DNA from: Promethearchaeia archaeon
Lineage (GTDB): Archaea > Asgardarchaeota > Lokiarchaeia > Sigyniarchaeales > SOKP01
DNA: 64,000 nucleotides
Assembly (NCBI GenBank): GCA_046483985.1
Contig: JAWOCD010000004.1
Span: 18,117 to 82,116, forward strand
Direction of reading: 5' to 3'
Shown: piece after piece, positions 30,202 to 31,599 of the stretch
How the letters are laid out: every line of letters begins with the position of its first letter
Numbering within the stretch: the first letter of the stretch is position 1
Notes under the pieces: generated by a model
Database searches by the model: none
What the model was told of the DNA's origin: nothing
The model's input: only the letters and a program-made list of their open reading frames with translations
Program-made: the position numbers and the translations under genes

Positions 30202-31599
30202 ATGAGTTCGGAAAATAAAACAAAAATTGTTGTTATCGGAATGGGCTATAATTATTAGGGTATCCCTAATAATGGCTAAGTTGGAATTCCGATGGCAGCT
30301 CTCTTAGCTGATGTTCCAGAGTTTTACGTTACTGGGATTCAAAGACGTTCAAAGCGTTCTGGATGGAAAATTGACTGGCTAAATGCTGGAAAGAATCCCT
30401 TTGAAGGGGACGAGCCAGGATTAGATGACCTAATCGAACGAGTTGTTAAAAATGGAAAGTTTTCAGTTACTCCTGAATATGACGCTTGCGATACTGCAGA
30501 TTATATTTTAATAGATGTCCAGACCCCAGTTGATGAAAAACGGGTCCCCAGATATAAATCTTTGAAAGAAGTGTCAAAAAAGGCCTCAAAACATCTTCAT
30601 AAAGGAACCACCCTAATAATCGAATCGACCGTTGCCCCAGGAACTACAAACAATATTGTTGAGCCAATATTAGAAGAGGGAAGCGGATTAACACGCGGAG
30701 ATGATTTTTATTTAGTCTTCTCTTTCGAACGTGTCATGCCTGGTAAATTGATTGAATATATTACGGACTTTCCGAGGGTGATTGGAGGAGGATGTGAAAA
30801 AGCAAATGAAAAAGCAAAATTTCTTTATGGAAAAGTAGTCAAAAAAGACCTACAAGTTACCGACACATTAACAGCGGAATTAACGAAATGCATTGAAAAT
30901 ACTTATCGGGACGTAAATATTGCATTTGCGAATGAAATGGCTTTGGTTGCAGAGGATTTTAAAAGAGATGTATTTGAAATCATTGAACTTATCAATCATC
31001 GACATGACCGAATGATGCATATTCCCGGTTCTGGGGTAGGTGGGCATTGTCTCACGAAAGACCCGTGGTTATTAATGTACGGGCTTGAAACCTACACCGA
31101 TAAACAAAATTGGGACAAAGTTAAAATTCTTCCGTTTTCAAGAAAAATAAACAACTCAATGCCGTCACATTTAGTGGATCTTATGGAAGATGCATTTAAG
31201 GAGGCAGGAAAACCCGTGAATGACTCAAAAATCACCATAATGGGGGTTGCCTATAAACCAAATTGCGATGATACAAGAAATACTCCCGCAGCAGAAGTCT
31301 TCAATATTTTAAATGAACGTTATAATTCTAAAGTCTCTTATATTGCACACGACCCTTATGTCAAGAAAAAATACTTTACATACACGGACTTAACGGAAAG
31401 TCTTCAAGAAGCAATAAGTAATGCTGATGCCTTGTTATTTGTTACGGATCATAGGGAGTATTATAATTTGGATTTGATGGAATTAAAAAATAAAGTAAAT
31501 ACCCCCATTTTAATTGATGGACGAAACATTTTCAATAAACAAAAAGTCTTAAATTTAGGCTTTATTTACCGTAAAATAGGGGAAGGAATAGGAAAATAA
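30202..31599 (+). CDS. Nucleotide-sugar dehydrogenase (UDP-ManNAc/UDP-GlcNAc 6-dehydrogenase type); two exons 30202-30249 and 30280-31599, 455 aa when spliced
   Basis: KIVVIGMGY|VGIP Rossmann motif, ESTVAPGTT, ERVMPG, ENTYRDVNIAFANE, GVGGHCL.KDP, AYKPNCDD.RNTP, DGRN. Confidence 0.88.
30250..30279 (+). other. Candidate 30-nt bulge-helix-bulge (tRNA-type) mRNA intron
   Basis: In-frame insert AAT TAT TAG GGT ATC CCT AAT AAT GGC TAA with two stops; 10-bp stem 30251-60/30264-73; central helix GGCU/GGCU; 3-nt bulges AUA and AAG; 14-bp exon-exon helix. Confidence 0.8.

Follow-up and report, generated by a model that had tools for sequence, protein, structure and literature searches.

A putative bulge-helix-bulge intron in a nucleotide-sugar dehydrogenase gene of a Promethearchaeia archaeon

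We analysed a window of 64,000 nucleotides (nt) from the genome of a Promethearchaeia archaeon (assembly GCA_046483985.1, contig JAWOCD010000004.1, positions 18,117 to 82,116 of the forward strand; positions below count from the first letter of this window), and describe here a gene for a nucleotide-sugar dehydrogenase on the + strand whose reading frame is interrupted by what is very probably an intron of the tRNA type. An ATG at 30202 opens exon 1 (30202–30249), a stretch of 16 codons that reads MSSENKTKIVVIGMGY, ends in GMGY and encodes the first half of a Rossmann GxGxxG motif. There follows a 30-nt insert (30250–30279), present once in the genome, that reads NY(stop)GIPNNG(stop) in the same frame, the stop codons being TAG and TAA. 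Exon 2 (30280–31599, comprising 439 codons and a stop codon at 31597–31599) resumes with VGIPMAALLADV, beginning VGIPMAALL, and holds the remainder of the nicotinamide adenine dinucleotide (NAD)-binding domain, the central domain, the catalytic GGHCLTKD motif and the UDP-binding domain. The two exons together encode 455 amino acids, and the open reading frame (ORF) that had been called, 30292–31599, encodes 435 amino acids without the GxGxxG strand. A preliminary description of the locus, made from the letters of the window, had placed the start codon, the insert, its stop codons and VGIPMAALL at these positions, and re-reading the window bore out each of them.

The family to which the gene belongs is indicated by several profiles. 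In particular, the called ORF matches PF03721, PF00984 and PF03720, which are the three domains of the UDP-glucose/GDP-mannose dehydrogenase family, and scores 330.5 bits against the NCBIfam model TIGR03026 for nucleotide-sugar dehydrogenases (cut-off 189.8). Coverage of the N-terminal domain by the called ORF begins only at profile position 35; the three-domain architecture and the GGHCLTKD motif are present as the gene stands, and GMGYVG is formed only once the insert is removed. The best-scoring specific model, the WecC (UDP-N-acetyl-D-mannosamine dehydrogenase) equivalog NF040825, gave 303.8 bits, far under its cut-off of 750, and from these matches the gene is named only to family level, as a nucleotide-sugar dehydrogenase.

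We propose that the insert represents a bulge-helix-bulge (BHB), or tRNA-type, pre-mRNA intron that EndA, the splicing endonuclease, and the ligase RtcB remove, a reading to which we assign a probability of roughly 0.88. The junction that the reading predicts can be compared directly with genes that lack the insert. Cuts after the second base of each bulge (the BHB rule) give GGC UAU/GUU GGA, that is, GMGY/VGIP (here and below a slash within a sequence marks the predicted cut or junction). Among 80 orthologs in public Promethearchaeota metagenome-assembled genomes (MAGs), 77 read IVVIGMGYVGIPMAALLADV without interruption, as do 15 orthologs of related genera, and the TAT/GTT junction matches exactly what those 77 encode, so that the earlier proposal of an EndA cut removing exactly 30 nt and restoring GMGYVGIP agrees with the intron-less genes to the base. 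Removal shifted by one base in either direction yields a stop codon or a different residue. Exon 1 likewise agrees with the N-termini of the 77 uninterrupted orthologs, and with that of the nearest relative, locus L138.

The anatomy of the motif is as follows. The central helix is formed by GGCU in exon 1 (30244–30247) and GGCU in the intron (30274–30277), which pair in four base pairs (bp), two G-C and two G·U. On its intron side stands the inner helix (30251–30273), a perfect stem of 10 bp (30251–30260 with 30264–30273) closed by the loop UAU (30261–30263). The 5' bulge, AUA (30248–30250), would be cut after U30249, and the 3' bulge, AAG (30278–30280), after A30279; the orientation is canonical, in that each bulge lies 3' of its own strand of the 4-bp helix. 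Beyond a single closing pair, G30243·U30281, and a 4-nt bulge (30282–30285), the exons pair with one another over 14 bp (30229–30242 with 30286–30299), three of them G·U. We classify the motif as a relaxed, HBh'-like form because the outer helix at the 3' bulge consists of that lone G·U pair and the 4-nt bulge. All of these elements had been listed in the preliminary description and were found again as given, and its suspicion that the single closing pair might make the motif a relaxed one holds as well. An 85-nt region around the intron folds at -31.4 kcal/mol (z = -5.8; none of 200 shuffled sequences was as stable), and the minimum free energy (MFE) fold contains both the 10-bp hairpin and the 14-bp exon-exon helix. 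For insert lengths of 26–40 nt in this genome, the chance that a given site and length satisfies the BHB rule is 0.33% when the inner helix has 2 bp or more and 1.8e-6 when it has 10 bp or more. The 23-nt core of the intron is single-copy in the genome even when up to three mismatches are allowed.

We then compared the window gene with other interrupted alleles, which had been gathered by exon-only patterns, by short gene calls or by homology, so that RNA structure was never a criterion for their inclusion. Inserts of 29–31 nt occur at the same site (site A) in 12 other distinct sequences drawn from other MAGs and from metagenome contigs, namely L138, L089, L079, L127–L132, L143, L144 and L146; L145 duplicates L089 without any difference. 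L138 was reached from the closest homolog, P0002. Among the 80 genome loci, L089 carries a 30-nt insert at the same site and L079 a 29-nt insert one base downstream. Six metagenome contigs, L127–L132, carry inserts of 30–31 nt and were recovered with a pattern that specified only exon codons and a gap of 24–54 nt, and gene calls of 434–437 amino acids among the homologs led to L143, L144 and L146. The inserts are 29 nt long in L079, L143 and L146, and 31 nt long in L127. Every one of the 12 fits the BHB rule, and the cuts that the rule places restore the mature sequence in them and in the site-B allele described below. AA forms the end of the intron throughout the 13 site-A alleles, and the exon 2 frames of all intron-bearing alleles are open, over 437–443 amino acids where complete and otherwise to the end of the contig. 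An assembly artefact is ruled out as the source of the insert, since 13 distinct sequences, obtained in many independent assemblies and samples, contain it.

The insert of L079 is informative with respect to what defines the splice sites. It is recognisably homologous to the inserts of L130 and L089 (AGUCUA.AAA...) and one base shorter, and its BHB register is moved by one base, with a central helix of GGUA and UACU and with bulges UG/A and AA/U. The shifted cut, TAT G/TC GGA, restores GMGYVGIP, and is the only cut that both fits the BHB rule and keeps the sequence of the orthologs. Such a shift would be difficult to account for if the splice sites were set by anything other than the BHB. A second site of insertion (site B) is found in L123, which also belongs to the 80 genome loci (JAEOTH010000037.1, from the Promethearchaeota MAG YT1_053), where a 30-nt insert with a stop codon (L123:2669–2698) separates GGH from CLTKD within the catalytic cysteine motif. 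This insert also fits the BHB rule, with a central helix of GGGG and CCCU, bulges AC/A and UU/A, and an inner helix of 1 bp, a U·U mismatch and a further 7 bp. Partial duplicated fragments of the same gene lie just upstream of the L123 gene (L123:1437–1800). The apical loops of the introns of L123 and L146 (the latter at L146:458–539) read AAUUC and AUUUC, respectively.

Covariation was computed on an alignment (A2) of 13 sequences. The pairs of the BHB structure were paired in 89.3% of cells, as against 29–45% when their 3' partners were slid by 1–3 columns. Both sides had changed in 14 pairs, among them 9 of the 10 pairs of the inner helix, with up to five distinct pair types at a single pair. 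The central helix was paired in 88.5% of cells over the 13 alleles, with one compensatory pair. The exon-exon helix is mostly inherent in the coding sequence, since an average of 11.5 of its 14 bp can form in 72 intron-less genes; in intron-bearing genes the figure is 12.7 of 14, the difference arising through synonymous third positions, and the helix is perfect in 5 of 9 intron-bearing genes vs 1 of the 72 (Mann–Whitney p = 0.006). The third positions of synonymous Ile and Pro codons covary (ATC..CCG, ATT..CCA, ATA..CCT), and such synonymous sites appear to be co-adapted to exon pairing. The coding sequence for IGMGYVGIP is self-complementary (GGAAU...AUUCC) whether or not a gene has the intron. 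The exon half of a BHB is thus available at the site beforehand, and this ready-made half may explain why the intron is placed here.

The gene has stayed under selection. L138, which comes from a different assembly and has the same PAS-kinase neighbour upstream, is 86% identical to the window gene in ungapped amino-acid positions (89% by BLASTP) and holds a homologous 30-nt intron that differs at 6 of 30 bases; these differences comprise a compensatory change of U-A to C-G, a change of G-C to G-U, the terminal pair and two loop bases, and the exon helix shows a compensatory synonymous change of ATC..CCG to ATT..CCA. Over 383 codons the ratio of nonsynonymous to synonymous divergence (dN/dS) between the two genes is 0.053 (pS 0.645, pN 0.074), and the introns diverge by 0.20. 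Judged by these substitutions, purifying selection has acted strongly on the gene in both of the intron-sharing lineages, and the gene is therefore not a pseudogene. In addition, the window gene retains 188 of the 197 columns that are invariant among orthologs, compared with 59% of variable columns, and its nine departures from invariant columns are all conservative. The preliminary description had named relaxed selection on the downstream exon as something that would speak against splicing, and these values show strong constraint instead.

On the gene tree the intron is distributed patchily. The next relatives of the window gene, L139–L142 (84% identity), have no intron, and over the 85 rows of the tree the site-A intron requires at least seven changes, with seven of the eight intron-bearing rows falling in one well-supported clade of 32. 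L079, which has the intron, and L075, which does not, are 98% identical in amino-acid sequence. Because of this distribution, and of presence and absence in so close a pair, the intron is either old with many losses or mobile. In the comparison of L079 (1432–1513) with L075, about seven synonymous differences cluster within about 35 nt of the exon flanks in genes that are otherwise 95% identical in DNA, and several of the flank differences make BHB pairing stronger in the allele that has the intron. This pair may have undergone co-conversion as the intron was gained or lost. Two comparisons called for in the preliminary description, of intron presence and absence among orthologs and of covariation, have in this way been carried out, the former yielding the 12 further site-A inserts beside the 77 uninterrupted MAG orthologs and the latter the 14 pairs changed on both sides.

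The genome (4.06 Mb, 97% complete, GC content 35%) encodes the enzymes that the proposed reading requires. We identified one EndA of 200 amino acids (G000, contig C32:38230–38829; TIGR00324, 112.9 bits against a cut-off of 59.6) and two full-length RtcB proteins (C37:24400–25707 and C66:103302–104609). ARAGORN found only 19–22 tRNA genes, with none for Ala, Asp, Glu, His, Met, Thr or Trp. Asgard tRNA genes are reported to be heavily interrupted by introns (bioRxiv 10.64898/2026.10.13.758758), and the low count agrees with an interruption of many tRNA genes at non-canonical positions.

Four other protein genes of the same genome appear to be split in the same manner. Removal of a 30-nt insert from the gene for elongation factor EF-2 (C115:48042–48071) restores AHID/HGKTT (inner helix of 9 bp), and removal of a 30-nt insert from the gene for AMP phosphorylase (C32:149428–149457, minus strand) restores DKHST/GG (10 bp). 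Likewise, DLHTG/DG is restored in an HDAC-family gene by removal of 31 nt (C23:2444–2474; 3 bp) and FGQ/TEGLL in dnaG by removal of 38 nt (C13:29821–29858; 3 bp). All four inserts fit the BHB rule and end in AA. According to Pfam, the two halves are consecutive parts of one domain for the HDAC-family protein (profile positions 4–154 and 191–296), for AMP phosphorylase and for EF-2; for dnaG the support for the split is the restored motif. At least five protein genes of this genome are thus predicted to be split in this way. The suggestion that the genome be scanned for further BHB-split genes was borne out to the extent of these four, which were located at known motifs, and not by geometry as such: a genome-wide scan that combined the BHB with joining of ORFs returned 87,231 hits, dominated by hairpins between adjacent genes and no more numerous than in controls whose 3' cut had been moved by 1 or 2 bases. 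Because the hits do not exceed these controls, the scan provides no census and is useful only for locating junctions that restore known motifs. A motif-free tblastn pilot, for which 205 kb of a related genome (G024:C1) supplied the ORFs to be compared with this genome, found no split pairs. A strong-looking hit of the scan on contig C96 (L = 30), which we set aside, is probably two adjacent genes with M at the junction.

Several observations weigh against the proposed reading. The MFE fold pairs GGCU 30244–30247 with AGUU 30279–30282 rather than with its BHB partner; the BHB conformer, at -30.5 kcal/mol, is 0.9 kcal/mol weaker than the MFE fold at -31.4, and the central pairs have an ensemble probability of about 32%. 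The outer helix at the 3' bulge amounts to one G·U pair, then a 4-nt bulge, then the 14 bp. Broad specificity for relaxed motifs has been tied to EndA of the (αβ)2 or ε2 type (PMC5829648), and published work assigns (αβ)2 EndA to Asgard archaea; in this genome, a second (β) subunit was not found with PF01974, with PF02778 or in a search of the genome with its own EndA protein. A second subunit may have diverged beyond detection, may be absent from the assembly or may carry an interruption of its own. Finally, the covariation score of 0.338 exceeds that of shuffled alignments (0.157; none of 500 reached the observed value), but the compared sequences are related, and the shuffle statistics overstate their independence; the slid controls (scores of 0.05–0.11) and the number of distinct pair types are unaffected by this caveat.

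The explanations that compete with splicing by EndA and RtcB share some of the evidence described above. One holds that the gene is a pseudogene into which a small palindromic DNA element was inserted, the fit to a BHB being coincidental. In its favour are the in-frame TAG and TAA, the interleaving on the tree of orthologs with and without the insert, and the L075/L079 pair. However, the dN/dS of 0.053 between two intron-bearing relatives, the open exon 2 frames of all intron-bearing alleles and the covarying helices are not what such an insertion predicts; nor are a single-copy insert, the 1.8e-6 probability that a BHB whose inner helix has 10 bp would arise at the required site, or the similar splits in EF-2 and dnaG of the same genome. 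The apparent target-site duplication is moreover inconsistent between alleles, being GGCTAT/GGCTAA in the window and GGTTAC/GGCCAA in L089 (here the slash separates the two copies). We consider this explanation very unlikely. A miniature inverted-repeat transposable element or a repeated element of the insertion-sequence type was considered separately and rejected, the core being single-copy and the flanking near-repeat not conserved among alleles. It is still less probable that the insert is simply retained, with a 435-residue protein made from M30292 and perhaps a separate 18-residue N-terminal peptide. Gene callers do choose the ATG at 30292, or its equivalent, in intron-bearing alleles, which accounts for the calls of 434–437 amino acids, but the product would lack the first β-strand and the GxGxxG loop, its match to the Pfam N-terminal domain starting at profile position 35. 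In addition, both the sequence and the frame of exon 1 are conserved across the intron-less orthologs and L138, as would be unexpected were exon 1 untranslated or unjoined, and a conserved intron structure would serve no purpose.

Two further explanations accept that the 30 nt are absent from the product and differ from EndA splicing in how they are skipped. Ribosomal hopping of the kind described for gene 60 of phage T4, with the hairpin and the nearby stop codon inducing take-off, would suit the strong hairpin, the stop codon two codons past the break and the near-repeat GGCUAU...GGCUAA in the window. Against it, take-off and landing codons are mismatched in L089 (UAC vs CAA), in L130 and L132 (UAU vs GAA) and in L128 (UAU vs AAA), and no matching codon pair is available across the 29-nt gaps of L079, L143 and L146 or the 31-nt gap of L127; the near-repeat is accounted for by the self-complementary central helix. 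Hopping is, in our view, the least probable of the explanations weighed here. Removal from the RNA by some other pair of nuclease and ligase, or at sites other than those of the BHB, seems about as improbable as retention of the insert. It would fit with the detection of just one EndA subunit and with the difference between the BHB fold and the MFE fold. Yet only the sites predicted by the BHB yield the sequence of the orthologs, and the one-base shift of register in L079 follows the BHB. To our knowledge, archaea have no other machinery for introns so small.

The message would, on the proposed BHB reading, be processed as follows. In the transcript, GGCU of exon 1 would pair with GGCU of the intron to form the 4-bp central helix, flanked by the 10-bp intron hairpin and the 14-bp exon-exon helix so that two 3-nt bulges are exposed on opposite strands. 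EndA would cut after U30249 and after A30279, and RtcB would join the exons to give ...GGC UAU/GUU GGA... (junction ATGGGCTAT/GTTGGAATT), from which a junction-spanning peptide, IVVIGMGYVGIPMAALLADVPEFYVTGIQR, is predicted. Translation of the spliced message would produce GMGYVGIP, with the Rossmann NAD-binding motif whole and the enzyme active; without splicing, the message would give only an 18-residue peptide, or a 435-residue protein without the NAD-binding strand. Very probably it is the tRNA-splicing enzymes that cut the message and ligate its exons, although cleavage and ligation in the cell are what we infer from comparative evidence. The idea put forward in the preliminary description, of a BHB intron in a metabolic gene, is supported by the exact junction, by covariation, by selection, by the EndA and RtcB genes and by the four additional genes that appear split.

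As for the neighbourhood of the gene, the genes around it encode a PAS histidine kinase, a DUF2961/GH172-like protein, an OTCase, an NMO and others. Because no glycan cluster was found around the gene, its context is of no help in naming a substrate.

The closest precedent is the pre-mRNA of cbf5, a pseudouridine synthase gene of Crenarchaeota, which carries a BHB intron (Watanabe 2002; Yoshinari 2006; Yokobori 2009, PMC2738675). Its splicing was demonstrated by cDNA and in vitro cleavage, and most cbf5 introns are of a relaxed, HBh'-like form (PMC2738675). The intron described here resembles those of cbf5 in being short, in lying in coding sequence beside a catalytic or cofactor motif, in having a BHB of mostly relaxed form whose predicted cuts fall between the second and third bases of the bulges, and in being present or absent among related lineages. 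The cbf5 intron is removed by the tRNA splicing endonuclease, and comparative evidence leads us to propose the same enzyme here. Unlike cbf5, the present gene is a metabolic one, for a nucleotide-sugar dehydrogenase, and belongs to the phylum Promethearchaeota (Asgard); its introns are of a uniform size of 29–31 nt, and at least five protein genes appear to be split in one genome. With non-canonical BHB introns of archaeal and Asgard tRNAs (Marck and Grosjean 2003; bioRxiv 10.64898/2026.10.13.758758) the intron shares 3-nt bulges, a 4-bp helix, an inner hairpin, a similar length, an exon sequence that forms half of the motif and, presumably, EndA and RtcB; it differs in that the host RNA is an mRNA, whose coding sequence must provide the exon pairing. 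The HVO_1309 message of Haloferax volcanii contains a BHB intron in its 5' untranslated region (UTR) (PMC7714728) and is, like the present message by inference, an mRNA substrate of the archaeal splicing endonuclease. Its intron lies in an untranslated leader and leaves the frame intact, whereas the intron of the window stands at a codon boundary inside a conserved motif and would block translation unless removed.

A parallel with the HAC1 and XBP1 introns of eukaryotes, drawn in the preliminary description, stands as a conceptual likeness and implies no homology. The introns of both systems (IRE1 with RtcB or Trl1 in the case of HAC1 and XBP1) are small and non-spliceosomal, with cuts by a protein endonuclease in two loops and rejoining by a tRNA ligase, as is proposed for the present intron. 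The nucleases, however, belong to different families, and the HAC1/XBP1 motif consists of two stem-loops with a consensus, not of a BHB, and serves a regulated stress response.

In the searchable literature, cbf5 of Crenarchaeota is the sole case of an intron in coding sequence spliced by the archaeal endonuclease, and the 5' UTR intron of HVO_1309 is the only other mRNA substrate; mRNAs are not covered in the preprint on the tRNA introns of Asgard archaea (bioRxiv 10.64898/2026.10.13.758758). By its comparative signature, the intron is of the cbf5-type pre-mRNA class in a new phylum and a new gene. More speculatively, it might be one of a population of BHB mini-introns of about 30 nt, spread among tRNA and protein genes of Promethearchaeota and settling where coding sequence supplies half of the motif, with repeated gain, transfer or loss producing the patchiness, which includes a pair that differs in the intron at 98% amino-acid identity and a second insertion site within this gene family; we regard this wider scheme as possible but rather unlikely.

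The comparative support for the intron is unusually complete, comprising 13 alleles, covariation, a frame-preserving slide of the intron by one base and a dN/dS of 0.05. One practical consequence concerns annotation, as gene callers truncate such genes (to 434–437 amino acids instead of about 455) or mark them as broken. The findings would carry the mechanism over to a metabolic gene of the archaeal phylum that is closest to eukaryotes, and bear on how introns colonise coding sequence before a spliceosome exists and on whether the Asgard ancestor already spliced messages as a matter of routine. Under the wider and rather unlikely scheme of a spreading population of mini-introns, the expression of many protein genes would already have depended on RNA splicing in the archaea most closely related to eukaryotes, and the near-isoenergetic competing fold raises the possibility that splicing could also be a point at which expression is controlled.

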